DNA from: Callorhinchus milii
Lineage: Eukaryota
NCBI RefSeq assembly: GCF_018977255.1
Contig: NW_024704742.1
Coordinates: 34,846,001-34,910,000 of the forward strand
Direction of reading: 5' to 3'
DNA length: 64,000 nt
Numbering within the stretch: the first letter of the stretch is position 1; each line of letters starts with the position of its first letter. The notes under the pieces were generated by a model that was not told the origin of the DNA, did no database searches, and saw only the letters and a program-made list of their open reading frames with translations. Shown piece after piece: positions 4,221 to 28,462 of the stretch. The position numbers were made by a program, and so were the translations under genes.

Positions 4221-4259
4221 ACCTGGGCATATTATATTGCAGTATTGTATAATAAATTA

Positions 4260-5900
4260 TAAAGCATTAGATAAAGTATCTGAGATTTTTTTATATTAAA
4301 ACGTAAATGTTTGATATATTGTTCTGATATTCGTATGTAGAATCTTACACTTACAGAATTTAACAGTTATTTGCTCTTTGTAAGAATTTAAAGAAAGTTC
4401 TGATGCATTATTTTCTTTCCCAAAGCACAGATGCTCAGTGGGCAATACATACAGACTCAAATACTTGAGCAGATAAAAGTTAACACGATCTTCAAAGACT
4501 ATGCTGTATAGTACTGATCCTCACTAAAACTATTTGGAGAGGAAAACACCATTATCAGGACCAAACAAAACAGATGGTCTTTTGGAAGCTCACATTTAGC
4601 ACGATCATTCTGCAGACTATGTTCTCACTTATTACTTGGAAATCAACCAAAATGTCCACGTTTCATCCTTGAACTTCAGTCACAGGTAATTAGTGGCTGA
4701 AAACTAATACCTACGGAAAGTACTCTGGAAAACCTGCAAATACCCCTGTGCAGAGGATCAGCCCAGGGGTGATGAAAGATCCTGCTCTTTGAAACACGGA
4801 GTCTTTGAATCATGGAGCCCTTTACCAGCTTTCAGTTATTCAAACGTGGAATCAGTGGAATCTGCTATCAGTTCTCAAGCCTTCAAAAACATTTCAATAG
4901 CGCTTTCAATGATATGACATCCGATTATAAAATTACAACAGTCTGCTCAGACACCGAATAAACATCAGCTGCTGGGGTTTAAATTCTGTATTTAATACTT
5001 ATTCTCCTGTTGATTTAATGTCAAAGCTGTGTGTGATGGCAAAGCCTCGTTATATAATCAGCTCTGCATTGTGTTAGTATTTTAACACAGGTTTGATGTT
5101 TAAAATGAAAAAAACTACATTAATGTCACTTTTAATGGGAATCAAATATGTATTTAGGCTCTTCTGCATTACAACAATTTGCATTTATGTAGCACCCTTC
5201 ACGCCGGATGGCGTCTTGGAGCGCTTAACAACGGTGGCCGGGCTTTCAGCCTCTCTGCCCCCACACTCTAGAACTCCATCCCACTGTCCATTCGCCTCAC
5301 TTCCTCCCTCACATCCTTCAAGGCCGGTCTCAAGACCCTTCTCTTCGACCGTGCCTTAGGTCTCCCTCCCACCTCTCTGCCTTCCATCACCCCTACACCA
5401 CCCCTCCCCCATGTTCGGGCCCCGACATCTGACTGTTCAGCGCTTTGGGACGTCCTCCCGACGTGAAAGACGCTCTATAAATGTAATTTTGTTGTTGTTG
5501 TGGAGCCTGATGCCTAGCCATGAGCCAGGGGAGGCAATTACTGAGGGAATACTGAAGAGAAGTTACACTTGTTAGGTACAGAGCTCTGGTAGCAGAGCTG
5601 GGAGCAGTTCACCTGCCCATCCTCTATTCAATTGTGTTCCGAGGAATCTTAAAGAGGGTGAAAGGAATTTTAAACAAAGAGAAAGTAATGTAAAAGGGGA
5701 GCCATGAATTAATGACAACAAGGTTAATCTCATACAATGGCCTGATGAAATGTTAGTGATATCTACGTCCTCTACATTCTTGAAGAGTTGGGCATCTCGG
5801 TTTATACACTTAAGCCTGGTGATGAGTTTCCACGCATGAGGACGTGCAGGTGGACTTGGTACAATGTACAGAGTTGATTCTGTCTTCTGTGTTATTCAGT
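4260..5900 (+). repeat. Arm A of a long inverted duplication (partner A' at ~26850-28460)
   Basis: 4457-4810 is the reverse complement of ~27921-28282 with 7 substitutions and one 8-nt indel by hand count. Similarity continues at lower identity out to ~4260 and ~5900. Confidence 0.95.
5172..5536. mobile_element. Nested L2 3'-end fragments (a minus-strand tail with a plus-strand 3' fragment inside it), inserted only in arm A
   Basis: L2 tail GGGACGTCCTCCCGACGTGAAAGACGCTCTATAAATG..(GTT)n at ~5447-5500. The insertion is absent from A', where GCATTAC joins directly to TAGGGGAATACTGAAG. Confidence 0.85.
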
Positions 5901-6699
5901 AATCAAGTCACTTTCACAACTTCTGTAACCACAACAAAATTAATTTCCTTTGCCTTAGTCTACCCTATGTTTTTGCGGCTGTCATTAGGTTTGTCAGCTC
6001 CAGCAATATGTTGACAATATACCAATATACTTAATGGTCCAGCTGCTTTATCCAATGAATATCTGAGCCATATAAACTCCCAAATTTTTCCCTGTTCTGT
6101 GCTGGGTTAGCACAATCTGAGCCATAGCAAATTTAAAAGTACTGTGACTGGTCTTAGCGCTCAGGGCTAGAGAGGGAAAAATCAGATTAGGTTTCCAATT
6201 ATGATAACTAGATGGGACATTGAAAGAGAGAGAATATTATTAAAGATTAATAATATAACATTTTACCAATGTCATAAAGATTTCTGTTTAATTATTAGTT
6301 CCCTAATATTTAGAACTCTGTTACTTTTGATGGAAAGAGATCAGAACAACAAAAAAGTAGTTTAACATACAAGGTTGCACAGCACCAATCTGATGACAGA
6401 CCATCAGAACCCATTTAATCCTCTGGAATATGGAAATAAATACAGACCAGCCTTGTGTGTAGCATTTGGAGGAGCAGAACAGTCACAGGGCATTGGGAAT
6501 CTTCCTGCTTGGTTCCTGATAGCTCTGCAAGCCAAAACCTAATGTGTAGGGTGTTCCCATGGCAAAAGAAGTTTGTGACCAGCACTTCGCTTTTCAGACT
6601 TTTGCTCCTAAGGTTTGTCACTATGTTTCAAGTAATAATTCAATTTTGAGGTTCAGTTGATGAAAAACTGCTCTGCTTATGGAACAATATAAATCCCCT

Positions 6700-8270
6700 G
6701 GAAAATGGAAATAAATACTAAATGTTTAGTTATAATTAATAATAATAATAATCCTTGCATTTGATATTGTGTTTTTCACTCTGAGTTAGTGCATTTCAAG
6801 ACTCAAAGTGCTCCAAGGGCTTCATAGCACTGGAGAGTACAATGACTGTGCATTGTGTAGAAGCAGCTGATTTGCATGCAGCAATATCCCACAAACAGTC
6901 TTGAAGGGGATGACCAAATGTATCTGGGAGATTGTTGGTCCAGGACACCAGGGGAAACTTGTTTATTTTTGCACAGTGACTTCCACCTAAACAAGCAGAC
7001 AGGATCTCAGTTTACCATCTCATCCAAAATAAGCACCTCCAGCAATGCAGCACTTTCTCAGTACTGCATATTGAGTTCAAAGACCCAACATGGGACTCGA
7101 GCCCACAACCTTTTGACTCATAGGCAAGAGCACTACCAACTGAGCCAGGCTTTCATGTGACTATTATTTTAGTATTTATGTCACAAACAGTTGACCTGCA
7201 TCTCAGGATCACTGCAGGAGTACATTCCGTTCAATGCTCATACTTAGAGTTTTACCACAAACAAATCTGGCACAATGGTAGGAGATTGCTTCATACTGAG
7301 TCCACACTTCCCCAAATTCAGCATGTTGAGTTATTGAACAAAAACACACTTTATTTCAGAAAAAAAATGCTCTCCCAACAAACAGTCTTCTCCACTTTTC
7401 ATGAGATGAAATGACCTGATTGTTACTGGAGTAAGAGTCGTAAAAAAGAGTTTTGTGTGGCTTTCCTGGAGAATGGTTTTGACCAGTTATGTTAATTCTA
7501 AAATAAGTCATCAGTGTATTTTTTTTAGGATTGCCAGTCTGAACTACAGGAATTCCTGCAAATAAATACGTAAAGCAATAGCTCAACCACAAGAAACAAA
7601 GAATGAAGATGAAAATCTGTGGTTAACAAGTAAACTGGGCAGGTGAGGTGACTGTGACAAGCACATTCCTGTGCCGCTGTTGAGGTTTTTTCTAATATCC
7701 CAAGAGCAGCACTTGTGAAGCAGTTCACATCACATCTGCATTATTTTTCCAAAAAAACAGCTGGCTGAGGGGGAATCACCACCAAGCCATTGTCTAGTCT
7801 TTGAAATTAATCCCAACTAAAGAGGCATCTTTTGTTGGAATCCCTTCCTCTGTTGCATTAGCAAATGATTTATCAACACAGACATCAGTCAACTCATGAG
7901 TTCTACAGTCTAATAGCTTATATGCTTTGAAAACTTCTACTTTGAGCAGTCCAATTGAAACATCTGCTGGTAAAACCATGTGAAAGATTTAATAGTAGGA
8001 ATGCCATGAAAAACATGTGTCTATCTTGTAGGCTTTGATGTTCTGTATATTAAAGAGCAACTCAGCCTTCTATATTTTACAGAATGATAGAGAAACTGAG
8101 TCTGTTTCTTGGAAATCCTTTAAATAAGTCTTCTCCCCCTACACAGGACATCAAAATTCGAACATCTTAGCATTAAATGAAATTCTAAAGAAAAGATTGT
8201 TGTTCAGTTTCTCTCATTGCCTATAGGCAAAAGGGACTATAAATAAATGAATGAATAAATTGATCCAATT
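6700..8270 (+). repeat. Arm B of a long inverted duplication (partner B' at ~19700-21160)
   Basis: 7611-7880 is the reverse complement of ~20365-20634 at roughly 95%, including a 57-nt perfect run at 7754-7810. Weaker matches include 8081-8130 vs 19866-19916 and 7161-7560 vs 20690-21140. Confidence 0.95.
6738..7150 (-). mobile_element. Deu-type tRNA SINE (long type), inserted in arm B only
   Basis: (AAT)n-CCTTGCATTTGATAT tail at the left end and the tRNA head reverse complement (GAGCACTACCAACTGAGCCAGG) at the right end. Confidence 0.8.
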
Positions 8271-8559
8271 GCAGTATGGAAGGAACCTCATCAGATCGAC
8301 AACGCTGTATAAGAGGCTATAATTAATAACCTCACTGTCACCAGGTTACAATAGTGTGTAAGTACGTGCAACAATTATTAGCTCGTGTTACACATCATCT
8401 CGGAATCACAAAAATAATCTTTCAATATTATAATAAGACTGGCATCAGGAGCAAGATAAAACTCAAAGAATGTTAGAAAAGGAGACAAACAAGAACTAAA
8501 CTGAGAAAAACAATCTTTGCATTTTATATCGCACCGCAGGCCGTCGAAACCCTCATACA

Positions 8560-9155
8560 TGCTTTCATTATCTCGATTTGACTATGCAAATTCATTGCTT
8601 GTCGGCCTCCCCAATTCCTCCCTCAACAGGCTGCAGATCATCCAGAACTCTGCAGCCTGTGTCCTCTCCCACACTAGGCTCCGCGACCCTATCACCCCCA
8701 TCCTCACCCGACTCCACTGGCTTCCCGTCACACAGAGGATACAGTTCAAGATCCTAGTCCTCACCTTCAAAGCCCTCCATGGTCTTTCTCCCTCCCTCCC
8801 TCTCCGATCTCCTAAGCCCCTACCATCCTGCTCACCCCTTCTGCTCAGCGGGCTCCGGCCTGATTCACATCTCCTGCCTTGCTCGCCCGAGCCTTGGCAG
8901 ACGGGACTTCCGCCACTCTGCACCCACCCTCTGGAAATCCACCCCGCAGTCCCTCCTCGCCCCTTTCCTTACCAACTTCAAGACCCATCCCAAGACCCTC
9001 CTCTTCGACCGTGCTTTCAATCTCCCTGCTTCCCCCACTGCCCTCCACCCTCCCCGACCCCAACCCCCAGCTCAGGTGCGTAACTGTCTGTCCAGCACCT
9101 TGGGACGTCCTCCCGACGTGAAAGAGGTTATACAAGTTTAATTTTGTTGTTGTTA
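8560..9155 (+). mobile_element. L2 LINE 3' fragment
   Basis: Encodes SRFDYANSLLVGLP..LQIIQNSAA..ITPILTRLHWLPV..RIQFKIL (L2 ORF2 C-terminus); ends GGGACGTCCTCCCGACGTGAAA..(GTT)n. Confidence 0.9.
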
Positions 9156-9619
9156 ACAAATTACAATGTCTCAAAGCAAATCAAGTTTCTTTTGTAGGCG
9201 ATTTAGGAAACATATTAACTGACTACTTTATGTAGGGTTTTTCTTTATGAAGGAAGACTCAAACAATACTCTGTTTAACATCCAATTACATTGTTGAGGG
9301 GAGTGGGATGTGGAAGTGGAATCAGGAAAATGCTCAAATCTTAAAAAAGAGTTGGTCAAGGGAGTGTGTCTGGGCTGTTTACTGGATAATTAAGTTCCAT
9401 ACGGATAAAGAAAAGAGGAAAAAGCAATTAAAAAAAGGATGTACCGTAATAATATGCAATACATGGATGGGAATGTTAGTCAATAAACAAAGCAATTATG
9501 ATGTTGGTCCATGTTGAAAAATCAATTGAGTTAATTATCCCTAGAAATCATACTCAAGCTTTGGAGCACTGCCATTCAAGCACTTTGTATTATCTGGGCA
9601 TTGTGACGTAAAGGATCCA

Positions 9620-10015
9620 TCAGCCTTCAGAGGGAGCATAGAGTAGATCAGAGGTTCATCTTTAATGTTAGAGGGATGATGTATAAGAAACAATTAGATA
9701 AATAAGGCTCTTCAGTACTGAAAAGAGATGTTGCAAATAGGATTTTATAGAAGTATATAAACATAGATACCAAAAGGGATTGAAAAAGTAAATTTCACAT
9801 GCATCAAGGCAGCAGAACATAAGGGCAGATGTTTACGATTATCCAACTACAGGGCAAACACAAGGCTGTTTTTCTTTACACCGAGAATTAACAGCTGGAA
9901 CAGATTATCAGGTGGGTGGTTGAAGCCAGGACGCTGGACCAGTTTAAGAAACACCTGGAGGATGTAATGGGAAAATGGTAGGCTTGCTATTCTGGAATGC
10001 TGAGACCAAATTGGC
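9620..10015 (+). mobile_element. CR1-type LINE 3' fragment, degenerate
   Basis: Degenerate match to the CR1 ORF2 end (QRRF...LGLFSLEKR...DLIEVYK-like) seen at 49950-50400. Confidence 0.55.
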
Positions 10016-10599
10016 CAAAGGATCTAATTTAGCTGTACATCTCCTGTTTTCTTGTTTAACTGAGGCTAAGTGTAGGGAAAGGAGTATTAGCTTACCTTAG
10101 CTCTTTCCTTGCAGCTGTTAAAATGTTCACTGCCACAACAGGCTTCAGTCTTTGTTTCAAGGTAATAGTTACTGCATTAACAATTGTACAACGTAAAACC
10201 TACAGGTTATAATTTTCTGCAGATGTACACTGGCTGTAAGTGAGTCTGCAGCAGTCTTTCCAACATTTGTTACAGGCTTTTATAACCACACAGGTACATT
10301 CTCTCGGCATCATCAAAGCTTTCTGCAATATTCAAAGATCCCTATTACTTTCTGGTAGCCTTTGGGATTATAACTATTTAATTTAGCCATTTTGGCATTA
10401 TACTTTGCTCTGGTTGAAAAAATATGAAATAATTTGCAAGTTATTCAACCATTAAGATTCTATATAGAAATACAGAGACAGAAGTAAGCACAAGGAGCCC
10501 GCTGAGCCATTTTATTAATTCACGGCACCTATCAATCTTTTACAGGTCTGTGGGCCCTGTAGCTTGTGATCAAACATGTGATATATATCTCCTTTTTTA

Positions 10600-11000
10600 G
10601 CAACAACAACAAATTTACAAGAAAATAGGGCCTTTCATGTCAGGAGGAAATCTCAAGGTGCTGGACAGTGCAGGAATTCCACCCTATCTGAGGTTGGAAG
10701 CCAAGGGTGGGTGGAACTTGAGGGGGGTCGGGAAGAAAGTTGACCGAAGGCGCAGTCTTGAGTCAGACCTTGAAGGAGGCGAGAGAAGGGACAAGGTGGA
10801 GGGATTCTGAGATGGAATTCCAGAGAGTGGGGGCAGATAGGCTGAAGGCCTGACCACTGATGTTGGGGCAGCCAGGGTGGGGAAAGGAAGGACGGGGTAG
10901 GTTTGAGTAGACAAACTGGTGGATTTGAGATGAGGGAGTGAGCGGGGGTGAGCAGAGAGAGTAGACAGTTTGAGTGGAGGGAGGGGTTGGTTTTGAGTGG
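10600..11000 (-). mobile_element. L2 LINE 3' fragment
   Basis: (CAA)n tail plus CTTTCATGTCAGGAGG and a G-rich L2 3' region like that at 32227. Confidence 0.75.
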
Positions 11001-11234
11001 AAGGAAGGGGCGGACCCTGTTTGTTGGATTGAGTTTTGGTTGAAAAGATACCATTTGTTCTAGAATTCAAACTGGAAATAATGTGAGCAACAGTAACAGA
11101 ATAAACACAAGTATGAGAGATATTGTGTTGTTACTTTCCTCACTCGACCACGGTGAGCAGTAAAACATTTAAACTTTTCTTCTTTTCTTGAAGATCTCAG
11201 GTGGGATTTCCGGTCTGAGCTGAGTTATAATAAA

Positions 11235-12180
11235 TAATAACAACAACAAACTACACTTGTATAGCACCCTTCACGTCAGAAAGACGTCCCAGGACGCTGG
11301 ACAATCAGGGTTTTGGATCCGAGCTGGGAGTTGGGGTCAGAAGGGGAGGAAGGCAGAGGGAGTGAGGGTGGAAGGGTGACCGAAGGCACGGTTGAAGAGG
11401 AAGGTCTTCAGATGGGACTTGAAGGAGGCAAGAGAGGGGGTGAGGCGGAGGGTTTGCGGGATAGAGTCTAGAGTGTGGGGGCAGAGATGCTGAATACCCG
11501 ACCACCAATGGTGGGGCAGGAAGTGCGGGGGACCTGAAGCAGGCCAGTGTCCACCAAGTGGAGGGACTGGATAGGCTGATATGGGGTAATGAGGTTGGAG
11601 AACCAGGAGGGAACAAGACTGTGGAGAGCCTTGAAGGTAAGAACAAGGGTTTTGTACTCAATTTTCTGAGGAATGGGGAGCCACTGAAGCCGGGCAATAA
11701 TGGGGGTGATAGGTTCCTGGAGCCTGGCGCTGGAGAGGACAAGAGTTCTGAATAATCTGTAGCTTGCGGAGGTTAGAGTCCAGTGAGCAGGCAGTTGGTG
11801 TAGTCAAGCCGGGACGTAATGAAAGCGTGGATCAGGGTCTCGGCGTCCTGCGGTGGGAGGCAGTGGCGGAGGCAGGCAATGTTGCAGAGGTGTGGAAAGG
11901 TGGAATGGGTAACGGCATGAATGTGGAGTTTGAAGGATGGTTGAGGGTCGAAAAGGACACTGAGGTTTCAGATTGGCTCGGTGAGGTGAAGAGTGCAGCC
12001 ATGAATGATGATAGTGTCAGCGTCTAAGGTGAGGAGCTCATGGGAAATGTAGACTTGGAGCCAGGTAAGAAAAGAAACATTGAGGTGGAGGCGAGAGGAG
12101 AAGCGGTAGAGAAGTATAGAATGGTCAACAATATCGAAAGCAGCTGAGAGGTTGAGAAGGACAAGAAGGAGAAGGCATCA
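11235..12180 (-). mobile_element. L2 LINE 3' fragment (~0.95 kb), degenerate
   Basis: (CAA)n tail, CTTCACGTCAGAAAGACGTCCC terminus, and an antisense L2 ORF2 C-terminal region (SRLDYTNCL..LQIIQN). Confidence 0.85.
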
Positions 12181-12217
12181 TAACAACAATAATAATGCTT
12201 GCCATTGATATACCACG

Positions 12218-12425
12218 TCAACAACAACAACAACAACTTGGATTTATATAGCGCCCTCCACCCCGGGCGGCGTCTCAGAACACATCACAGTAATGGATCC
12301 CGGGGCCGAGCCATGGGGAGGAAGGTGACCAAAGACGCGGTCGAAAAGAAAGGTCTTCAGGCGAGACCTGAAAATAGGAAAAGAGGGGGCGAGGCGAAGG
12401 GAGTGAGGAAGGCAGTTCCAGAGCC
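12218..12425 (-). mobile_element. L2 3' fragment of a second subfamily (same as 54140-54387)
   Basis: Tail CAACAACTTGGATTTATATAGCGCCCTCCAC; the translation RLWNCLPHSLRLAPS is shared with the 54140 copy. Confidence 0.8.
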
Positions 12426-13157
12426 GACGAGACATCTCAAAGATATACTGCAAGTGGTGTGACTGTTTTGTGGATTGCCAATTTGCGCACAACAATATCC
12501 CATAATGAGCCAAGGAGTAAATGCCCAGTTTTATTGGGGGCATGTTAGCCAGAATACTGAGAGAAACTCCCAGTAGAAACACCAGGCGAGTTAATTTGTC
12601 TGAACCACTGCAATGTATGGACCACTACAATTAATCTCAGTGCCTCTAGGTTAGGCCGGGACGAGAAATATCAACCAGGTTTACTTCTCCTATTACCTTG
12701 TCATGACATCCTTGGGCTACGGAGGGTAATTCATTACCTGAACAGGTTACCAGGTGGTTGGTTGAGGACAGGATGCTGGACTCGTTTAAAAAAGAGCTTG
12801 ATGCTGTGATGGTTGGTTTGGTATACTGGAAAGAATGAGATCAAATGTGCTGAAGGGCCCTTGGTTCTTCATCTGAATCACTCTTGCGATCTTGTGAAGT
12901 GTACATAATGGACAAGAACAGGATAGCCCATGGTGTGTAACCCTTTAATGCTGACTATCTTGGTTCACATACGATGTGGTGGCTGCATGAATGAAGCACC
13001 TGGAGGGATGCTAGTGTCCATGGGACTTTTTTTCCCCAGCTTTAAATCATCACAATCATTGGGCAAATGTGTCCTGACAGACTGAAAGTTGTAAGATAAT
13101 CAGTATTTTCAGAATTTGAAAATAAATCCCATTCAAACTCCTACCATGCCACTTGTC

Positions 13158-13582
13158 GGGCTGGCTCAGTTGCTAACACTCTTGCCTCCGAATCAGAAAC
13201 TTGTGAGAGCAAGCCCCACTTTAGGACTTGATACTGATTCTCCAATTCAGAGCTGGGGGTGTGTTGCATTTTGAAAGTTCTGTCCTTCTGAGGAGACGTT
13301 AAACCCAGTTCCCTGTTGGACTGTTTAGGTGGACATTAAATATCCCATGGAACTATTCAAAAAGAAAAGGGAATTTCTCCTGATTCCTGGCCAACAATCC
13401 CCGAGGTAAAATTGGTCACTCTTATCGTGGTAGTTGTGTGGATTCACATTGCTGTGTGCATTGGGCTCATGCGTTCATCTACAAATACGTAGTCACTCCA
13501 CTTCACAGTAAATCCTGTCAAGCACTTTGAGACATCCTCCAGATGTGAAAGGTGCTATATCAACCAGAATGATTATCATTAT
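13158..13582 (+). mobile_element. Deu-type tRNA SINE (long type)
   Basis: Head GGCTGGCTCAGTTGCTAACACTC, Deu-like core, and an L2-like tail GAGACATCC..GATGTGAAAGGTGCTATATC. Confidence 0.75.
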
Positions 13583-14299
13583 TAATCACAAGGGAGGAAG
13601 CAGGGCATGCTGAACCACTGGCTTTTCACATCTCTGTAAGTGCTTCCCTGTAATTGCTGGAGGGATGTGAACTTCAGCTGGTCAGGTCTTCTCCTGCCAT
13701 CTTTTCCTTCCCCTGGAGATGGAGCTCTCTCCTGCTGTAAAGTGCTCAGAACAAATGAAAGTTCACACTCACTGAGGGAATTGAGTTCAACTAGCAGTCA
13801 AGTCCATTGAGCTCTGGGACGCTACGGTGCGTGAGGGACACTGTATAAATGCAAGTTGTTGTTGTTTGTATTTGGCAGTCATTAATCTCTGAGTATTTGA
13901 TAGGGGTGATATCTGTGATATTTCATGCCTTGTGATACTTATCACAATCTCCTCTTTTTTAATTTCGCAGATCCCAAGCTCATTCTCTTTCTCTCCCTCT
14001 TTCAGCTATACAACCACTGTAACACAGTATTGTTTAGTATTCGCAGACACAGCGATGAACTCTTCTGTTATGAAGGGTGTTCGCCATACCTTCAGAGGCT
14101 TTTTAAAAAAACAAGTAGAACTTTCTTAACAGGGAAGGTAAGCGGTGTCTCCTTGGAGCTAACTCCAAGGAACATGTTTGGCAATGGAATGTCCAAATCC
14201 CTCTATACCGGTCTCAGTAGTTCAGTTCCTGAGCCAGATGAGTATGCAATATTCCAGGGCACTGCTGGCTGGCTCATCAGCAGGATTTGGGATGGGAGA

Positions 14300-14552
14300 A
14301 CACTGTCACTCGGGGCAGGAATTCTTCCCACTCAAGCCAAAGCCCTAATGGTGCAGTGGTCCCAGCTCATCCACAGCGGGAAAGCTTGCCAGCCGGTACT
14401 CTCAATGACAATTCATGTGGTTTTAGCTGGTTAAACTCCAGCAGTACACCAACACACACTCTGGGGTCCCTAGAACTCTCAGTTTGGATTGGATACTCTT
14501 AAGCATGGTGATGTGTGACTGTATGGGGACACCCAGCTGACCAAAATAAATT
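14300..14552 (+). repeat. Copy of an unclassified dispersed repeat (ends ...GACACCCAGCTGACCAAAATAAA)
   Basis: Reverse complement similarity to 15460-15800 and 37630-38060. Confidence 0.75.
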
Positions 14553-15459
14553 GAGGATGGTGAGACTGATAAAAATAAAGTGCACTTTTATGGAAAAGTA
14601 TGAGTAACTTAGTAATGGTCATCTGAGAGGAACCAGCAGAGAATCGTTTGAAGCAAAATGTTGGCATTTCCCCATTCTGTAGAAATATTCACTTTCTGCT
14701 TGGCACAGTATCTGTTTCAAAAGAAGCAATTATTTTGGATGTGTAGCTTACCTAAAACTCCCCAACACATCCTGTTAAATAAGGTAAAAAAAATCACAAC
14801 TGTGATGAGAAGAAAGTAACTTACAAAATGGGGTCACCACAAACGATGTTTCACAAAATCACCAGAAAGGTTCGAATGAAGAAGACCCTTCAGCCCATTT
14901 GATCTTATCCTATCAGAAAACCCATCCTAACGTCTTCCCATTGTCACGTAAAACTTCTTTTTAATGAGTCCAGCGTCCGGGCCTCAAAACGCTTCCTGTA
15001 ACTTGTTCCCAGAGATTGATTACCCTCTGGGTAAACAAAAACTTCCTGGTATCTGTACTGAAACTGCCTTTTACAATCCTAAAGGTCATTACGGTGGTAT
15101 TTCTTTGTGAGGAATTGATAAAATCCAAAGGAACAAGGTGTCATCCAGCTATATGCATGCACGAAGAACATGTTAATTGTTATACAAAAAGGTGAGGTTG
15201 AAAGATCATGCATTTAAACAGCTCCAGTACTTGATGAAAGTGGATAAACCCTTCCGCGTAGTTTTCATGTTGCGGTGCTTATAGAAACCACTGAGAGCAA
15301 GACAACATTGATTGGAACCTCAATCTGGGTTTGCATAAGCGCAGAAAAGGAAAAGGAAAAGCTAAGGTTTATATTACAACAGAATTTTTTAGATCAAAGG
15401 AGATTTGGTACACATTGGATACTATTATTGATTTATCCAAACAAATTAGAATGCAGTAT

Positions 15460-16899: not shown

Positions 16900-18249
16900 T
16901 ATAAACTTTTTTTTTAGACCACCACACACACACACACTCCCAGTATATAGCTGGGAGCCACCTTTGGAAAGACAAAAAAAAAACTGGATGCAGCAGCAAA
17001 GATTCAGAGAGGGGATCAGGTTGCGTTCACGTGACTGAGTGCAATCCCAATGTATTCATGTTACAGGCACCATCTGGGAGCTTTGTCACAACTCCAGCCA
17101 ACACTCCTGTTTAAACCTACTTTTCCCCATTCCCTCTCTCTTTCTTTCTTTTTTGCTTTCTCTCTCTCTCTCTCTCTGGCTGAAGGGCGAGACTCAGTGA
17201 TTTGCTCACTCATCTGAACTTCAGATCTCTTTCTGATCTCTGTCTCTCTCTCTCTCTCTCTGCCACCAAAAAAAAAGCTGCAGGACGCCCCCAAAGGATT
17301 GGTTTTTTTTTACTGCTGGCAAGAAGCCAGAGAGAGAAAAAAAAACTTTTCTCACTCTCTTCCTTTCTTTCTCTCTCTCTCTCTCTCTCTCCCTTCCTCT
17401 GTCTGTCTTTCTTTCTCCCTCTCTCTCCACTGCAGTTGGATCAGCCCAAAGCGATTTACAGGGAGACATGCAGTTTTTTTTTAAAAAAAGAGAAGAGTTG
17501 AGTGTGTAGAGGAGAGGCACAGTGTGTTACTGTTCCTGAGATAGAGAGAGAGAGAGAGAGAGATAGAAAGAGAAAGAGACTGTAAAAAAGCAAAGCTGCT
17601 CAGACGATCTGAGAGACTTATTGCAGTTGTGATCCTCTCAAGAAGAGATGCATTTGTTGGACAGAAGAGGTGACTGACTGTGGGATCTCTCCCTCTCCCT
17701 CTCTCTCTCTCTCTCTCTTCCTTCCCCCCTCTCCTCTCTTTTTTTCCTCCTCCTCTCAGCTCCTAAGCAGCTGGTCGGCAAAGGTAAATCTCTACTATTG
17801 CAGAGGGATTGCTTTCAGCAAAGAGCATTGGAAGAAGGCAGAGCAGTGCAATTTGCTTCCCCCAACCCCACTCCCCCAACCAACCCCCAGCCCACTCCCC
17901 CTTTCCAAACTCCCCACTTCTCACTCTCTCTCTCTCTCTCTCTCTCAGTGAGGGAATGCACTGTATATAACGTGCTTTGAAACCTGGAAGCGCTACAGAC
18001 AGACAGACAGACAGAACACATGAAAACATTTGGCACAGGAGCAAAGTGGGCAAGTGCTCTTCTTTACAAGAAAAGGCACTGATTTATTTATGCACCCCAC
18101 CCCCACCCCCACCCCTCTCCCAGCGTTGACTTAAATTGCAGCTGATATCTGGAAGATGGTTGTGGAAAGTGTCTTGGCTTCAGAGTGAAGCACGACATGA
18201 GTTGCTGGGATCATCAGGACGTGTTTGAGTTTTAAACCTGACCATCACC
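16900..18249 (+). promoter_or_regulatory. Probable FRAS1 promoter / 5'UTR region (transcription start not determinable)
   Basis: TE-free stretch directly upstream of the FRAS1 ATG. It contains an E-box TCACGTGAC (17027-17035), a nearby CCAAT, TATA-like TATATA at ~16944 and ~17964, and long (CT)n/(GA)n tracts. Confidence 0.6.
17130..17948. repeat. Cluster of (CT)n and (GA)n microsatellites / polypyrimidine tracts
   Basis: (CT)n at ~17130-17177, 17240-17261, 17370-17427, 17686-17757 and 17921-17946; (GA)n at ~17538-17580. Confidence 0.95.
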
Positions 18250-18334
18250 ATGAGCTGTGTGCACCTTTGGTTTGTTGTTGCTGCTGCTGCTGCTGCGTTG
18301 ACCAGTTTGGTAACCTTGCCGCAGGAGAGTGAAG
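18250..18334 (+). CDS. FRAS1: FRAS1 (Fraser extracellular matrix complex subunit 1) coding exon 1: signal peptide MSCVHLWFVVAAAAAALTSLVTLPQESE + phase-1 G
   Basis: Start context CACCATGA, a hydrophobic signal peptide, and donor GAAG|GTTGGT. Spliced to exon 2 it gives ...LPQESEGVCVYQGSFFA, matching human FRAS1 ...LPHHSEGACVYQDSLLA (recalled from memory) with the same short-exon layout. Confidence 0.9.
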
Positions 18335-19189
18335 GTTGGTACATCTGACCATTTCCCAAGTTTTTAACGAGAACTGCAGTCCACGATGTAGTTTTTGTGC
18401 TTCTTTCTGGGGCTTCCCACAGCTATTGTTGGGGAGCCCAAAATTTTTTTTTTTTGCAGGCTACAGATTGTACTGTTGGCTGGCTAGGTCTGTTTGGATC
18501 ATGCATGCATACGTTATTGCTGGTGTTAGTGGCTAAGACATATTTTCACAGTGACTCGTGATAGTTAATAATAACTAAAGCGCTTTAGCATCTCAAGAGC
18601 CCTCCCTGAGTCCAGACTAACCACCTCAGTGAGGCTCCTGCAAAATAGCGTGTGCTGTACAGGAAAATATTGTATGTAACCTAGTTTCGGAGTTGTGTCA
18701 ATTATGTGAGGCTGCAATTTAATAAGTCCCTGATTTTTTTCCCCCTGATTTCCCCCCCACCCCCACTGTTTGTTTCATACCTGGTCATAGTTCTACGATT
18801 GCTGCCCCACTGAGAGATAGGAGAGCAATTGCATTATTCAATGGAAAGAAATTGTGATCATCCGAACTTCAGAGTCGTTGCAAGTGGTTCACCTTTATGG
18901 TTGTGTTCTTGTTGATGAGCTGTTGCTTCGTATATGCTTTGCATTAACGCTGCGGGCAGTGCAATAGCTACCAAATATGTCAGATGCCCTGATAACCTGT
19001 GTTTGCTCTTTCTGGACAAAGTCTTCACATCGAACCGCAGGGGAGAGTTGTAATGAGTTACTGCTGCTCATTCATAAATCGGTTGCCCCCCTTTCAAACC
19101 ACCTTAAAAGGGCTAGGCTTCATTTGTGCCCACATATTTTGAGCCACTTATAAAGAATTGACGACCAATTTGCACTTAAGGGACATGCA

Positions 19190-19416
19190 GGGATTTGCAA
19201 CCAGATTCCATGGCACTATTCGCAATGCACTGTCCCTGCATGTCCTGGCCAACAATCCCCCAAATAAAATTGGTCGCTCACGCCTTGGCTGCTTGCGGGT
19301 CAATTGGCTGCCCACAAAATACACAGTCACTCCACTTTACGGTATATCACGTGAAGCGCTTTGAGACGTCTCAAGGACGTGGTATCGCGCCATATCAAAT
19401 CCAAGAATTATTATTG
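19190..19416 (+). mobile_element. Deu-type SINE, 5'-truncated
   Basis: CAATTGGCTGCC..CAGTCACTCCACTTTAC..GTGAAGCGCTTTGAGACGTC..CAAGAATTATTATT. Confidence 0.75.
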
Positions 19417-19699
19417 CAAGGAATGTTTTCGATGGAAATTTCAATAACTTTTCACAGGTGGGACCCACCCATGACAGCAACCGTTTTACAGTTTAATTTT
19501 TGTTCGCAGGGTTGATTAATTTGTAGAATTTAACCTTAATATTGTGCATTTTTGAATAATGTTTGAATAAAATATTGAAATACCATCAGAGGTAGATAAT
19601 AGCCACTTTAAGAGATTGTAGCAGGGTGCAGGATGTAAGTGACAACATTACCAGGACTCTAGTCTAGTCACTGAGGTACACAGACCTCACCTCAATGAC

Positions 19700-21160
19700 T
19701 AACTGAACCAGTTTATTTATGTTTATATATTTAGTTAGTTAGGGAGGTCCTTTTAATTGAATTGGAATAATGAAAGAAATTTAGAACAATTTGCTCTGCA
19801 ACGTTTTCTTATTTATTGCCCAAATGTTTGTATTTTATTGGCCCCTTGGTAAACAGGATTCGCATTGTCTATTTCAGTGATTTCCAAGACACAGACTCTG
19901 TTGCTCTATCATTCTAATCTAATCCTAATCCTTGCATTTGATATAGCGCCTTACGTGTCTTCGAGACGTCTATCTAGCGTCTAGCACTATCTAATTGTAA
20001 AATAACAACAACCACCACAAAATACATTTGTATAGAACTTTTCACATCGGGGGTACAACCCAAGGTGCTGAACAGTCAGGGATTTGGATCCGAGTTGAGG
20101 GTAGGATCAGAGAAGGTTGATCTTTGATACTGTATATACTGAAGAAAGGGGGAGGTCCTCCTGATGTGAAAGGCGCTATATAAATGCAATTTGTTGTTTG
20201 TTTGTTGTTGTTATAGCCTATATACAAGATGGACACATTTTTCATGGCCCTCCGACTCTTAAATTTTTTACATGGTTTTACCAATGGATGTTTCAATTGC
20301 CCTGTTCAAAGTAAAAGTTTTCGAAGCTTATACGCTACTAAACTATAGAAGTCATGAGTTGATTGTGTTGATAAATTATTTGCTAATGCAACAGGGGAAG
20401 GGATTCCAACAATAGAGGCCTCTTTAGTTGTGGTTAATTTCAAAGACTAGACAATGGCTTGGTGGTGATTCCCCCTCAGCCAGCTGTTTTGTTTGGAAGA
20501 ATAATGCAGATGTGATGTGAGCTGCATCACAAGTGCTGCTCTCAGGATATTAGAAAAAACCTTAACAGCGGCACAGCAATGTGCTTGTCACAGTCACCTC
20601 ATCTGCCCAGTTTACTTGTTAACCACAGATTTTCGTCTTCATGGATGTTTTCTTGTTAATGTGCTGTTGCTTTATATATTTATTTTGAGGAATGCCTGTA
20701 GTTCGGACTACTTATAAATATATTGAATAAATATGCACTGGTGATTGGTTTTAGAATTATTGAAATTGGTCAAAATCATTCTCCAGGAAAGCCACACAAA
20801 AGTCTATTTTATGGCCATCATTGCAACAACAATAACTTGCATTTGTATAGTGACCCTCACGCAGGGGCCAGTAACAATCAGGTTATTTTAAGTCATGAAA
20901 ATGGGACCAGGCCATTTGTTGGGAGAATGGTATATTTCTGAAATAAAATGTGATTTTTGTTCAATAACTCACTTACGTGCTGAAGTTGGGGGAGCGTGGA
21001 CTCAGTATGCAGGAATCTCTTGTTATTGAGCCAGGTTTGTGTGTGGTAACGCTCTAAATATGAGCATGGAACAGACTGTAATCTTACAGTGATGATGAGA
21101 CACAGCACAGCTCTTTGTGACATCAACGCTAAAATAATAACTAGTTTAGTATTTATATCC
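19700..21160 (-). repeat. Arm B' (FRAS1 intron 1), inverted copy of 6700-8270
   Basis: See arm B. It carries its own SINE/L2 tail cluster at ~19917-20214 and a short L2 tail at ~20822-20867; both are absent from B. Confidence 0.95.
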
Positions 21161-22894
21161 TTATATAACTGGAAATCTGAGAATGGCTGAAATTTAGTGA
21201 ATATCCCTTGGTAATACCGTATAATGTGGACATGGTTCTCTAAAATCTATCCCACCGTTTGTTGTATCATCTGGGAATGATACTGAAACAATACAACTGA
21301 AACAATATTATGATTTTATAAATGTCAATATCAGACAATGAAGGACATGAATTCTCGGGCAAATCACTGTCTGCAATGACTACCATAAACATTACAAACC
21401 TCACCTGAAATTGAATAAAATCTTGTGTAACATTGAAACAGGTGTCACAAGATCAGATGCCAGGTAGCCACTTCAAAGCCATAATCTAATCTAGAGATCA
21501 CCTTCTCATGGCTTTCAATACCATCCAAATCCCTTCTTTCTATTATTCTCTTGTAATCATTGTCAGAGATCTGTTAGTCTCAGTAAATATATATACTGAA
21601 TGGTGATCAACTGTTACTCTGATCATGCAGTGATTGCAGTGTACATTTTGAACTCTTAGTGTGAGGGTTGACACTTAAATAACAAATCGTGGGTACCATT
21701 GTTTGTTATAACACCAATCTCATATATATAAAGAAAAGTTCTAAACACTTTACAACTCAGTCATTCAAAATTGTGTGAGGTTGATTTTGTGGTTGTTTAC
21801 TCACCAAGCTTCAGAGGCCAATTATTAACCATCTGAACTATGCTATTATCCTTTTATTTTATCACCTAAATCCCTCAATGAAGATGGTGCCTTGTAATCT
21901 TTCTTTTGTACCTATTACTCTAGATATAACCTTAGAAACACAACCATACTAACATTTATCTCTGATAGTAGAACAATGAAATATGTAATGTACAGTAAGC
22001 TTCTGAAAACTCATCACTCCAAGCAAAAAGGACTTAGTAATGAGTTATCAGGAGTGGCGAATTAGGCATATGTATAAATGCATAAATAAATGCGACTGGG
22101 ATATTGACAACGCAATGACTTAAGTGGTAGTGGCAAGTTAAGCCAGGGTCGAGTTATCAGGATAAAAGTTAGCTTTGTATTGCAAAGTTCAACATGTTAC
22201 AAAATCATGAAGCACAAGAGCAAAGCTTAAGTGCTCTGTATGGCTCCTGAGTTCCTTAAGTTATGTTATAGGGCAGTAAATAAATATTCTCAGTGTTTTT
22301 TTCAATATTATACAGCATCTTTCACTTTGGGAGCACATTTCAAAATGCTTCACACAACTGACCGGGAGCTCAATCTGTGGGGTGAGCTGAGGATGGGGAA
22401 TTGGGTGGGGAGTGCAGTCAAAAAGATTTTAAAGGTTTTAAAGGCAAGGAAGTAGGGGAAGTAGTGGATGCACTCCAAGATGGTTTTTCAGAGAGTAGAG
22501 GCAGAATGTCTAAAAGTTGGCCATCAATGGTCATTCAGAGACCATGGAGCAGTCTGAATCTAGAAGAGTTCCAAATATTACAGAACTAAATAATTCAACA
22601 GAAATCCGCGTAACATTGCTTAAAAGTTATTTTGTTGTTAATCTTTAACGACAGTACTTTTTATTCCATTGCATCAGTCACATAGTTACATAGTCGAATG
22701 TGCAAAAGCTTGAATTCGCAGTGCAGACAATAAAGTGCCTGAAGTAATAGAAACTGTTGCTAGCCTGACTGGCTGGACATTTCAAGGGCAAAAGGAAGAG
22801 CAGTCACGTTACACAGGTGAACCTCATTTGTTTTGAGTCGAACCTGGGTGTTTATATTTATCAAGAAGAATTAGCTGAGTTTAATGATAAGCCT

Positions 22895-23260
22895 TAGTTT
22901 CATATAGCACATTTCACACCATAAGGACATCCCAAAGAGCTTCACAGGATGTCCTGTAAAATGTAGTAACTTTGTGTTTTGTGGATGGAGACAGCAGCCA
23001 ATTTATGCATGAACAGTTGGGGATTTGTCAGCCAGGACATAGGGAGAAACTTCTTTTTTTTAAATAACACTATCGGATCTTTAACATCCAGACAGGCAGG
23101 GCTCCATTTTAACTACTCATCCAAAGGATAACCCCTTCAATAATGCAGCACCACATTAGAGTGTCACATTAGACTATATGAGCTCCAAGTCCTAATGTGG
23201 CCTTGAGCCCCCAGCCTTCTGACTCAGAGGTGAGAGTGCTGCCAAACAAGCCAGCCTTAC
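22895..23260 (-). mobile_element. Deu-type tRNA SINE (long type)
   Basis: Reverse-complement tail (CATCCCAAAGAGCTTCACAG) and head (CTTCTGACTCAGAGGTGAGAGTGCTGCCAAAC). Confidence 0.75.
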
Positions 23261-24751
23261 ACCTGAGAAGTATGTGCAATGTGGTCCATCAGATTTTGGG
23301 AATTCGCGTGAAGACGCATGAAAGGTGTTTGACTCCACAACATTGGTTATGCGGGTGAAGTGCCAATGGGGTTTGACGCATCAGAAAACAGATAGTGAAT
23401 CAGCAAAGGATCAGTCTATGACAGTATTTAGAAATAAATCCAGGTGCATTGTAGTCACTGCACAATGGCGGGGGTAGCATGATGAGCAAGGAAGAAGAGG
23501 CTGTTTTTCAGGTGGGAATTAAAGATCGAAAAAGTGAGGCAGAGGAGGAAGGGTTTAGGTAGGGAGTACTAGAGATTCGGGCTATAGTATCTGAAGGTAC
23601 TGCATCATCTTTCATAATGCATGTAATTTCTTTCCAAGTTTTCTCTCCACTTCTGAAGACAGTGAATAATGCTGGGTACAGTCAGCTCAGGGTAATAACC
23701 AACTTACTTATGTGCTAAGATGTAACGCTAATTTTAATAATTAGAAGAGTTGATGCTTGAGTGGTTTGAGATGACCTGGCCTCAGTTGAAGGAGGAATTT
23801 TAATCCCTGAGCTCTTTAGACACCGGACTATATGTAACATCAAATATTTGACAGTGTTGAAAGTAAAAGTGCTGTATAGCAAAGAAATGCAACATCACCT
23901 GCAATAACTGGAAGCCCAACCAACCTTGTGCAGGCCCCAGATACTGCAGTTAATAAGGTCTTCAAGAAGCCATGGGAAACCTGCACATCTGACAGTCTAT
24001 CTGCCTTCACTATGGACTGATGGCCCAACCGAGATCAGCAAACAGCATAGACAGGGACCGAAACTGTCCTCAGTTCACAGGAGACCACAGTGTATAAGGC
24101 TCTGTTATTCAGCACATTCATTGATCCATCAGAGGAAGCTCTGTTTTCTTTCATTTGATATAAAATAATGCTCTATCAGGGCAAACCAGGCCATGGGGAC
24201 CAGATGGTGGAGTATTTTAGCATTTTGGCCTTTCACCTCTGGGATTTAAGACTCAAATCTACCCCACATTGATGTGGTGAACGCATTATTTTCTGTTACC
24301 TGAAGGGCTGTTAGTAAAAGGGTGGTGAGACATTTGATCTGTAACAGTACGATGTTTGACCTGGAAGTGCTGGATCCTGATTAATTGCGCAACGTGAGAA
24401 TGTGTCCATTTCCCAATACTGTAATAACATCCCTTACCGTGCGGAAAATTGAGGCAAAATAAGATGATAAGAGCATCTTGGTTGTAATCTGTGCCGTTCA
24501 CCAACATACTCCCTTAAAAAACAAGAAATAACTAGGAATATTAAGGTGGGGGGAAAACTTTGCTGAACCTTTCAGTTTGTTTTCTAGCCCTGATTATTAT
24601 TTCAACATGATAAGGGAGAAGCCATTCTAATTTAAAAAGATAAACATATTATTGAAGGGAATTTAGATTTGAGCTCTTTGAAAATATCTAATCTGTTTTT
24701 CTTTTTTGAAAAAAAACAGAGAATTGATTGTTTTGTTTTCTCTCTTCGCAG

Positions 24752-24783
24752 GTGTGTGTGTCTACCAGGGATCATTCTTTGCG
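24752..24783 (+). CDS. FRAS1: FRAS1 coding exon 2 (32 nt, phase 1 to 0): (G)VCVYQGSFFA, start of the first VWC domain
   Basis: Acceptor TTTTGTTTTCTCTCTTCGCAG| and donor GCG|GTATGT. It is in frame with exon 1 and aligns to human ACVYQDSLLA. Confidence 0.92.
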
Positions 24784-26849
24784 GTATGTTGAAAATTTAC
24801 AAGCTGTTTTAAATAATTGTATTTTATTATATGTCTGTGATGGTAACTGTGATGAAATGTGGTTCCAATACTGGTTTTAGACTGGAGTCTAATATGATTA
24901 GATTCACAACAAGAGTTGCTAATAGCATTAACAACTTCTGACCTGAATTTCTTCCTATAGGACCCCAATGTAATAACGAGATTTAAAAAAATGCTTGCAT
25001 TATGACATAAGATTGAACAGTTTAAATTGTGGAAAAAATTCACAAGGATAAAAGTAAGAAAAAATTGAATATTTTATTCATAAAAGTAACATAATAAAGA
25101 AACTCTTACAGCATGCAACGTAAAAATTAGGCTTGTATTATGAATTTACTTATACACATTTTGGAATGAATAATTCTCTTACTAGTTCACTTCAATAAGA
25201 ATATAAATGGTTTTCTGTATGTAACTGTTGTGAGGTGTGAAATGAACTGCTAATGTTTGCCAAAATACCTATAATTTGGTTTGAAATGATGCCTTACTGT
25301 GTAGAGGAGAGCATGGTTTTAATTTAATTCAAGCCCTCCTCCACCAAGCCACTGTTATCTTACTAATTAGAGACCCTTTCACTTTAATTTATGCATGCAA
25401 TCTTTACATAACACTCTGAGGAATATTACCTTGAAGTACACAATATTGTTTTCAGTGTTGAACTGGAATGGAAGTCCTAAGGAGTGATATTGTCAAACTC
25501 CATGCAATTTGCTTATACGAAGCAAGTTCAGGGGATCACATTCACCACATCACATATATACAAGGCTGGAATTTAAATTCTTTGTTGGTTTCCCCCAATT
25601 TTGCTCTTGACTATCAATGTCACTAGCAACTGTCTTTTATATGGTGAGGTCTCGCACAAGGAGAGCAATATAATATTGTACAGAGGCACAGCACAAACAT
25701 CAATAAATTGCATTTATGTAGCACTGTTCATGGCAGGTAGGCGCTCCAAGGCACTACCTATGAGGAATTTTGTTACTGACCACATTGGGGTGGGAAGTTG
25801 TTTATGCTAGTGCACTGATGGCAGATCTGTGAATGCCAAAACCACAAGTTTTTACCAATTGTAAAAGTTTATTAAGAATCTTAAACAAGCAGTGCTCCAT
25901 GTTAGTTATGTCAATACAGTATTAGGCAGAGCTTTTGTCAGTGACAGAAATTGAATTCCACAACATTTCAGTTGACCCCACAAGTTTGTCTTTTTCTGAT
26001 ATTTCCTGAATTCTTTACCTTCCCAAAAATAGGGCGTGGGCTGTTATCATTTCCATCCCTGGGTAGGAACACTGATTAACAAAGCTCACAATGAGTTAGT
26101 GGATGCCCTTCTTATTGAATTAAATAAACAATTTTTGCACAATTTTTAAAACATTTTTAATACTTGTTTGTAAGATTAAATTTCCTTTTCTTTATTTTTT
26201 TCATCAATGAAAATCATAGATTTTAAATAATCTTTGACCAAACTATAGGTTTGAGATCATCTTTGAACCACATTAACATTAACAATTCGCCTCAAGTTCA
26301 CTGACTGTGGTCAATTTGCTAATGTGGTCAGTTTTTTTTGCAGTACTATATAGTACAATAATACAAGCTTGCTAATGATCAAAATTCCACAGTCTGTTTG
26401 GTGACCATATTAGTGAGCTTCCACTGAAGTTGTGTTGCTGATGGCAGTGAAAGTGTGTGTAGCGAATATTATCAATATAGTAAAACATCTGACTTGCATT
26501 TACATGTTAAATTCAGTTTCAGATGATAGAATGTATCTTTCATTATTCTTATACAATAGATGAATACAACGCTTTAAAAAGCACTGACACAATATATCAC
26601 CAGAAGAGACACACCAGCATGGCTTTATGTTGCTGCTTAATGTTTGTCAACGTACTGTTTGAGTTTCCAAGTCTCAGCAACCCTTTAGGTAGTATCGAAG
26701 TCCTTATCTTGCTCTGTCTCTCATCTTTATAATATTTTACATGTAACTTAGTTATAATATCATCTAATTAAGAGGTTAAACAAAATCTAGATGCTAAGGT
26801 TTGGGAAAGATTGAATATTTAATTTTGCACCAGGCCCTAGAACCTACAT

Positions 26850-28462
26850 CACTGAATAACACTGGTGTAGACGGTTTTGAGGATAGAGAGAACTCTGTGC
26901 AAGGTCCGATAAAGTGCTATACAGCAGAGCTTGCAATCTTTCAGTACATAGGTTAGGAATCAGAAAATGAAATGGTTGTTGGTTGGTTGTTCACACTAGA
27001 AACCCATCACCATGCTTAAGAGTATTCAAACCAGATTGCTCAACTCTTCCAAGATTGCACAGGAAGCAGATATCATCAGCATTCATCAGGGGCTATCCTC
27101 TTTGTCATTAATTCATGAACCCCTTTTACATTACCTTCTCCTTGTTTAAAATTCTTTCACCCGCTTTAAGACTCCTCGTAACACCATTGAATAGAGGATG
27201 GGCAGGTGAACTGCTCCCAGTTCTGCCCACAGAGCTCTGTACGTGGCAGGTGCACAGCAACAGCCTACGGTGACTTCTCTTCAGTATTCCCCTAGTAATG
27301 CAGAAGAGCCTAAATATATATTTGAATCCCATTAAAAGTGTCTTATGATGTTAGTGCAGTTTTTTTTATGTTAAACATCAAAGCTGTGTTAAAATACTAA
27401 CATGATCCAGAGTTGATTATATAATGAGGCTTTGCCATCACATACAGCTTTGACATTAAATCAACAGGAGAATACATATTAAATACAGAATTTAAATCCC
27501 AGCAGCTGATGTTCATTCGGTGTTTGACTAGACACTTTACCAACCTGCCCGCTCCACCAAAGGCCTTCAGCCTTTCTACCCCACCCTCTGGAATTCCATC
27601 TGGAAAGCCCTTCTGCTTCGCCCCTCCCTTGCCTCCTTCAAGGCCTATCTCAAGCCTTTCCTCTTTGACCGTGCCTTTGGTCATCCTCCAGCCTTCTTTA
27701 CTCCAACCCCAGTTTGGATGCAAACTCTTCACTGTCCTGTGCCTTGGGTCGCCCTCTCAACATGAAAGGCGCTATATAAATGCAATTTGTTGATGTAATT
27801 TTATAATTGAATGTCATATCATTGAAAGCGCTATTGAGGTGTCTTTGAAGGCTGGAGAATTGATAGCAGGTTCCACTGATTCCCCGTTTGAAACATGGAG
27901 CCCTTTACCAGCTTTCAGTTATTCAAAGACTCCGTGTTTCAAAGAGCAGGATCTTTCATCACCCCTGGGCTGATCCTCTGCACAGAGATATTTGCAGGTT
28001 TTCCAGAGTACTTTCTGTAGGTATTAGTTTTCAGGCACTAATTACCTGTGACTGAAGTTCAAGGATGAAACATGGACATTTTGGTTGATTTCCAAGTAAT
28101 AAGTGAGCACATAGTCTGCGGAATGATCGTGCTAAATGTGAGCTTCCAAAAGACCATCTGTTTTGTTTGGTCCTGATAATGGTGTTTTCCTCTCCAAATA
28201 GTTTTAGTGAGGATCAGCACTGCTGTACTATACAGCATAGTCTTTGAAGATCGTGTTAACTTTTATCTGCTCAAGTATTTGAATCCATAGTTTATCCAAT
28301 GAGCATCTTTGCTTTGGGAAAGAAAATAATACATCAAAACTTTCTTTAAATTCTTACAAAGAGCAAATGACTATTTTTGAAAGCTCCAATGTATTATCTT
28401 ACATCAAAATTTATATTTTCTATTTTACATAAAAGGATCAGATCTACTTTATCCAATGCTTT
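26850..28462 (-). repeat. Arm A' (FRAS1 intron 2), inverted copy of 4260-5900
   Basis: See arm A. It carries its own L2 fragment at ~27535-27793, absent from A. Confidence 0.95.
27535..27793 (+). mobile_element. L2 3' fragment inserted only in arm A'
   Basis: GGCCTTCAGCC..CTCTGGAATTCCATC..CATGAAAGGCGCTATATAAATGCAATTTGTTG. Confidence 0.8.

Follow-up and report, generated by a model that had tools for sequence, protein, structure and literature searches.

The window analysed here, 64,000 nucleotides of the Callorhinchus milii genome (assembly GCF_018977255.1, contig NW_024704742.1, positions 34,846,001 to 34,910,000), holds the 5' end of the FRAS1 gene set between inverted copies of intronic sequence. 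Two blocks upstream of the gene, A and B, recur as reverse complements and in mirror order within its introns, B' in intron 1 and A' in intron 2, giving the order A-B-[promoter, exon 1]-B'-[exon 2]-A'. The window lies on a 139-Mb contig (C1) of an assembly of about 0.99 Gb, which is the genome searched throughout.

Judged by its predicted signal peptide, VWC, furin-repeat and Cadherin_3 features, the bracketed gene is FRAS1. A Pfam search of the genome placed six VWC exon matches (C1:34945481-34967402) and a run of Cadherin_3 (CSPG) exons (C1:35006549-35049470) downstream of the window, all on the plus strand. Proteins of FRAS1 architecture were also recovered, one cluster of which is named FRAS1 (P0151); their N-termini map from extended coordinate 99484 on, which puts exon 3 (99484-99591) 35 kb past the window, and the furin-repeat residues of protein P0021 map to extended coordinates 122172-124000. 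The first exon is placed by a contig of sequencing run X5 (9268 nt, depth 74) that aligns at 17959-18336 and then leaves the window region; X5 is taken as RNA solely because the match of this contig to the genome ends at the exon 1 donor, and regions devoid of RNA-run cover, such as B' in X5, are given no evidential weight. RNA-run contigs also lie at 17756-17882, upstream of the exon 1 start, and the 5' end of the exon is accordingly left undefined in Table 1. Exon 2 came from a scan for a separate small in-phase exon and is a prediction from sequence. Joined, exons 1, 2 and 3 give 225 nt free of stop codons that align to residues 3-66 of the FRAS1 protein P0151 with a score of 168. An initial annotation of this DNA had named the gene FRAS1 and proposed the order given above, and both proposals stand, the second with exon 1 placed by the X5 contig and exon 2 predicted.

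Other searches for the 5' exons gave nothing: tblastn of 150 proteins from the FRAS1 search against the window returned 0 matches, the short length and weak conservation of exons 1 and 2 putting them out of its reach, and a pattern scan of the window for a start codon and a VWC start within one exon found no credible exon. MRPL1, the human neighbour of FRAS1, was ruled out as a neighbour here, the Ribosomal_L1 matches sitting on contigs C16 and C19. The predicted exon 2 would be a micro-exon standing alone in the roughly 81 kb between exons 1 and 3, with an intron 2 of about 74.7 kb. A CpG-island scan found no island at the FRAS1 promoter. Long CT/GA microsatellites lie directly upstream of exon 1 and within its 5' untranslated region, and a GCT run encodes an alanine stretch in the predicted signal peptide (these features at 17350-17950 and 18280-18297).

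How much of this sequence is duplicated, and how is it arranged? Inverted pairs of at least 100 nt were listed across the window, the window was compared with itself by blastn at normal and sensitive settings, and identities and Kimura two-parameter distances (K2P) were taken from global alignments. Nine of the 17 inverted pairs belong to A/A' (I1, I5, I14 and I15) or B/B' (I2, I6, I7, I10 and I16), and the remaining eight are dispersed repeats. The self-comparison resolves the arms into a single colinear inverted chain of six pieces, A1, A2, A3, M, B1 and B2 (Table 1), which extends over 4.0 kb upstream (4253-8259) and 8.7 kb downstream (19722-28470). Two of the pieces are faint: M reaches 68.3 bits, against 38.3 bits for the best of 100 shuffles, and B2 appears in the sensitive comparison at 65% identity (E 4e-12). 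The self-comparison thus bears out the mirrored recurrence first noticed, as 4253-5830 with 26999-28470 and 7162-8259 with 19722-21139. The block limits proposed at the outset are good to about 150 nt, except that the left part of what was called B (about 6700-7160) is an old dispersed repeat lying outside the duplication; the upstream middle, 5831-6730, is mostly unique sequence. All of the duplicated sequence is intronic, and at sensitive settings the self-comparison detected no upstream copy of exon 1, exon 2 or the promoter, so that the description of the locus as a head-to-head partial duplication of the gene's 5' region was overstated.

Table 1. Features of the FRAS1 5' region, in window coordinates; SINE, short interspersed element.
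Feature	Coordinates	Counterpart	Strand or orientation	Identity and K2P	Remarks
FRAS1 exon 1	about 17959-18334		+		ATG at 18250; signal peptide; donor after 18334; 5' end undefined
Predicted FRAS1 exon 2	24752-24783		+		32 nt; good to strong acceptor, GTATGT donor; first Cys of VWC domain 1
A1	4253-4940	28470-27791 (A1', intron 2)	inverted	88%, K2P 0.13	
A2	4941-5172	27533-27295 (A2', intron 2)	inverted	90.5%, K2P 0.10	
A3	5537-5830	27299-26999 (A3', intron 2)	inverted	84%, K2P 0.18	
M	6197-6319	22687-22565 (M', intron 1)	inverted	71%, K2P 0.38	colinear remnant
B1	7162-8030	21139-20223 (B1', intron 1)	inverted	85%, K2P 0.17	
B2	8081-8259	19915-19722 (B2', intron 1)	inverted	63% (global), K2P 0.53	weak match
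A core	4457-4803	27928-28282		98.0%, K2P 0.020	7 substitutions and one 8-nt indel
B core	7606-7880	20371-20645		94.5%, K2P 0.057	
Micro-inversion	4804-4844	27887-27927	same orientation in A and A'		41 nt; flanked by 7-nt inverted repeats
SINE-type insertion, A only	5173-5536				5-nt target-site duplication; empty site in A'
SINE-type insertion, A' only	27534-27790				empty site in A
SINE-derived insert(s), B' only	about 19916-20222				limits approximate; absent from B
Old dispersed repeat adjoining B	6731-7151				many genomic copies at 67-77%; outside the duplication
Single-copy spacer	8260-19721				contains dispersed repeats, the FRAS1 promoter region and exon 1

The arms are low-copy, non-transposon sequence, as first supposed, and match each other far better than chance would allow. 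An 811-nt probe from the left half of A (4362-5172) and an 869-nt probe from B (7162-8030) each had two candidate matches in the genome, themselves and their partners in A' and B', in a search that scores the best candidates only and skips very common words, so that its counts for repeats are lower bounds. The open reading frames (ORFs) of the arms gave no Pfam match in any of the 12 tested (27 were listed, of which 15 lying outside the arms or in SINE and dispersed-repeat parts were excluded), and no Rfam family was found in the arms. Between 8000 and 27000 no ORF exceeds 192 aa, and those present sit in SINE debris or in debris of long interspersed elements (LINEs). No recombinase gene was seen in the ORF lists of the window, although no search aimed at one was made. 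That dispersed repeats landed here by chance, or that the arms are the ends of a transposon with long terminal inverted repeats, is a thought invited by a window rich in SINE and LINE copies, one of which had been taken into B at the outset; but arms present twice each in the genome, lacking Pfam matches and enclosing no long ORF argue against both. A foldback- or Polinton-like element in particular is a poor description of arms found at this locus only, with FRAS1 exons 1 and 2 as their interior.

An assembly error was considered as well. The copies are 10-37% diverged, each with private insertions that have a clean empty site in the partner. Contigs from DNA run X1, which represents another individual or haplotype and departs from the assembled sequence at no more than about 1% of sites, join the arm edges to unique flanks at 5603-6759 (A3 into the middle), 7781-8607 (B into the spacer) and 20605-22091 (B' and beyond). 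Because divergence, private insertions and these independent contigs across the arm edges agree, an assembly artefact is very unlikely. Both the dispersal of A and B over many loci and an artefactual upstream arm had been named beforehand as outcomes that would overturn the architecture, and neither was found. Taken together, chance landing, a transposon and an artefact are hardly credible and already largely refuted.

The private insertions give the duplication a relative age. The SINE-type insertion in A is young, being 92-96% identical to at least 39 other genomic copies, whereas the one in A' is old, its nearest genomic copies among the matches listed being 73-80% identical. Since that old SINE is absent from A, the duplication predates it; the duplication is old, and the SINE-derived insertions in A, A' and B' postdate it. 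Yet the A arms are still 87% alike. Set beside the old insertion and the 63-71% identity of M and B2, this similarity suggests that the arms have diverged less than they would under neutral decay, with the caveat that CpG decay and the subfamily structure of SINEs could make the SINE distances too large.

Identity between the arms is also strikingly uneven. It is graded from 94.5-98% in two cores through 80-87% in the arms outside them to 63-71% at the edges (M and B2), and along B it is heterogeneous (chi-square p = 1.7e-5). The longest exact run between arms, 97 bp, lies in the A core. Outside the cores, K2P comes to 0.143 +- 0.016 for A and 0.234 +- 0.023 for B, a gap of about 3 standard errors. 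The A core has sharp limits: a hyper-divergent patch (4438-4456) adjoins it at one end and the 41-nt micro-inversion at the other, heterologies of the sort expected to halt a conversion tract. The micro-inversion, present in one copy between short inverted repeats, has the pattern expected from the flip of a hairpin loop.

Alleles, too, appear to be shared between the A arms. Where the run contigs differ from the reference within the A core, they carry the A' state in 6 of 6 listed differences in X1 and 3 of 3 in X5, and position 4442, outside the core, likewise carries the A' state in run contigs. Over the micro-inversion and past it, the X5 contig resembles A, yet it pairs the A state (position 4696) with the A' state (position 4715, 19 nt away), a combination present in neither reference copy; it looks like a real mixed haplotype. 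The X1 alleles may instead come from an A' contig placed on A, or from a collapsed contig. The shared alleles fit shared polymorphism or gene conversion, on thin evidence. A raised density of X5 differences in the A core was considered as well, and was not used, reaching p = 0.03 only with two contigs omitted.

The graded similarity is a sign either of gene conversion from arm to arm or of constrained cores. We think it probable that the whole architecture is the decayed remnant of one old inverted segmental duplication of FRAS1 intron sequence, with homogenised cores and no regulated function today. A stretch of introns 1 and 2, now 19722-28470, would have been copied in reverse to a position some 10 kb ahead of the transcription start, likely by a fold-back-type template switch during replication or repair. 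The promoter and exon 1 would thereby have been left in a single-copy spacer, and exon 2 would have stayed between the two surviving islands of the original, while the middle of the upstream copy, with any exon 2 it held, was presumably lost. Insertions of SINE-derived sequence would have reached A, A' and B' independently as most of the duplicated sequence diverged, so that the two blocks first noticed would simply be what has kept its similarity. The most likely reason is that gene conversion within the chromosome, from one inverted arm to the other, kept resetting a shrinking centre of each, with a core of 350 nt (98% identical) and another of 275 nt (94.5% identical) as its outcome. For the present we would expect no regulated function and at most a weak recombination liability, in the geometry of F8 intron 1.

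Was there one event or two? The initial annotation spoke of two nested duplications, and B/B' might indeed have arisen before A/A', the first pair perhaps promoting the second; the difference in non-core divergence between B and A is real and fits two events of unlike age, and most of the 5.9 kb between B' and A' has no upstream homologue. A single event is favoured by M, which has the place between A and B, and the orientation, that one colinear copy would give it, and which scores well above shuffles; mirror order from two independent landings is also less likely, and unequal gene conversion would yield unequal divergence as well. We therefore favour one event with unequal homogenisation and retain two events as a rival that we consider rather unlikely. 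Several points nonetheless weigh against our preferred history. The upstream middle, 5831-6730, matches the 5.9 kb between B' and A' only through M, so the lost middle is itself an inference. Age and the direction of copying are deduced from one genome. Allele sharing, for its part, need not reflect gene conversion between the arms: it could come from contigs of A' placed on A, the cores being more than 95% alike, and the density of differences in the core of X5 is not significantly raised (4/546 against 17/3767 in six other contigs, p = 0.33). Constraint on the cores would, moreover, predict the same graded pattern.

That last point is the heart of a functional alternative, in which the cores, or else the arms in full, act as cis-regulatory modules on either side of the FRAS1 promoter and purifying selection keeps both copies. 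Mirrored enhancers were one of three roles proposed at the outset, the others being an invertible switch and double-stranded RNA, and none of the three is backed by evidence. For enhancers speak cores at 94.5-98% identity beside duplicated sequence at 63-87%, arms that seem too similar for a duplication older than the old SINE insertion, and the cover of A-B at depth 8-21 in X5, the run with FRAS1 mRNA, where run X8, which has no exon 1 cover, barely covers them. These are only two runs, however, too few for co-expression, and strand is undefined; a CTCF-like consensus matched nowhere in the window (0 matches, 0.54 expected), and the ordinary density of A-core differences in X5 is unlike very strong constraint. 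We regard selection on regulatory modules as unlikely, if the least so of the alternatives. A combined form, in which modules mirrored around the promoter and exons 1-2 are kept by selection plus conversion and leave a residual substrate for flips like that of F8 Inv1, is more doubtful still, somewhat below two separate duplications in our estimate.

The remaining two roles fare much worse. In a working or polymorphic switch, a B x B' crossover would flip the promoter and exon 1, and an A x A' crossover the promoter and exons 1-2. The geometry matches that of the F8 Int1h-1/Int1h-2 inversion (PMC7098248) and of the exchange of promoter and exon 1 between CTRB1 and CTRB2 (PMC6748972), and up to 97 consecutive bases are identical in the A core. 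But arms that are 80-87% alike outside the cores are too diverged for efficient homologous recombination, and the known recurrent inversions use highly identical repeats (PMC6748972). A flip would also uncouple the promoter from FRAS1, whose loss causes Fraser syndrome (10.1101/2023.07.08.548238). No strand-changing joint between arms occurs among the 15 contig joints listed (beside 2131 others), although contigs cannot phase the arms: the listed joints all lie between dispersed repeats and are uninformative on the arms, and short-read contigs break inside the arms and cannot give orientation. We hold such a switch to be very improbable. The same low standing falls to long double-stranded RNA stems, formed by A/B with A'/B' within a transcript starting upstream of A, or by an upstream RNA with FRAS1 pre-mRNA. 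Unspliced X5 contigs do lie on 4430-4975, 5473-6232, 6415-6723 and 6743-7980 at the depth given above. That depth, however, resembles the patchy cover of the spacer and intron 1, on an undefined strand, and DNA carry-over or pervasive transcription would be as likely a source; the FRAS1 mRNA contig begins near 17.9 kb, downstream of A and B, and the X5 differences show no A-to-G excess (A>G 6, G>A 9, T>C 6, C>T 4).

The window holds further features apart from the inverted chain. In FRAS1 intron 2, a 184-nt direct repeat (40277-40460 and 40476-40659) is 100% identical with its copies 15 nt apart, and may have arisen by very recent tandem duplication or be a stutter in the assembly. A 426-aa open frame on the minus strand at 73-1353 looks like a fragment of a LINE reverse transcriptase. 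Four tRNA-model matches above the Rfam threshold (39029-39100, 41874-41945, 52051-52122 and 55415-55486) are probably the heads of tRNA-derived SINEs and not tRNA genes, since they lie within or beside members of one dispersed repeat family. Differences between X1 and the assembly are about four times denser upstream (33 in 3730 nt over 5603-10835) than around exon 1 and past it (11 in 4923 nt over 16310-24199), which may mark a haplotype boundary near the promoter.

The main value of the locus is as a natural example of an inverted repeat pair ageing in place, with private transposon insertions, a hairpin-type micro-inversion, a lost middle and shrinking islands of high identity seen together. 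Should the cores turn out to be regulatory elements under conservation, or should conversion or recombination between the arms be continuing, the locus would serve as a useful model both of structural risk in a gene linked to Fraser syndrome and of how diverged inverted repeats convert one another. Were the cores indeed modules, FRAS1 would offer a mirror-symmetric regulatory architecture around a developmental matrix gene, in which rare flips would knock the gene out.

Among known systems, segmental duplications are the broadest point of reference. They are usually defined by a length of at least 1 kb and an identity of at least 90%, and consist of non-transposon sequence in two or few copies, as is found here; the FRAS1 chain spans 4.0 and 8.7 kb, with identities of 88-90.5% in A1 and A2, 84-85% in A3 and B1, and values above 90% in the cores alone; it reads as an aged duplication that falls under the customary cut-off. 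Sex-chromosome palindromes, whose arms are kept alike by arm-to-arm gene conversion, share with the FRAS1 locus inverted arms around a spacer and a partial high similarity best explained by conversion. Their arms, however, run to tens or hundreds of kb, are nearly identical and bear genes, whereas those at FRAS1 are non-coding and nearly identical only in cores of 275-350 nt. Bacterial invertible promoters, which combine a site-specific recombinase with short inverted sites, are unlike a vertebrate locus with diverged, kilobase-scale arms.

The closest geometric parallel is F8, where Int1h-1 in intron 1 and Int1h-2 outside the gene are the substrate of the Inv1 inversion of haemophilia A (PMC7098248). 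At both loci a copy in intron 1 is paired with an inverted copy outside the gene on its 5' side, such that a crossover would remove the promoter and exon 1, and the arms are of about equal length (0.9-1.1 kb for B/B' against 1041 bp). The F8 copies lie about 140 kb apart and recombine recurrently, whereas B and B' are 11.5 kb apart, 85% identical and not known to undergo inversion, and FRAS1 has a second, outer pair, A/A', that also brackets exon 2. The layout that supports F8-type non-allelic homologous recombination is thus present, with B' and A' intronic and B and A upstream, but the highly identical arms with long uninterrupted identity are not, the longest run being 97 bp and the arms 80-87% alike outside the cores. 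HsInv0030, the inversion behind the CTRB1/CTRB2 exchange, likewise has inverted repeats flanking a promoter and first exon (PMC6748972); there the repeats are highly identical, the inversions recurrent and the gene working in both orientations, whereas the FRAS1 arms are diverged and a flip would disconnect the sole promoter.

For the origin of such a structure, inverted duplications with a single-copy spacer that arise via a fold-back intermediate provide the nearest precedent, their inverted and non-inverted copies being parted by a normal-copy spacer as at FRAS1 (PMC3907307). The known cases are large, recent and pathogenic, and often lie beside terminal deletions, whereas the FRAS1 duplication is kilobase-scale, interstitial, fixed and old, with junctions that are too decayed to look for short inverted sequences and, being AT-rich as well, do not allow microhomology to be read. 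Among the papers listed for FRAS1 together with inversions or segmental duplications, none described this architecture for the gene, in keeping with the initial impression that it had gone undescribed there. The class itself is a known one: the FRAS1 architecture is a pair of inverted low-copy repeats, aged and set around a single-copy spacer.

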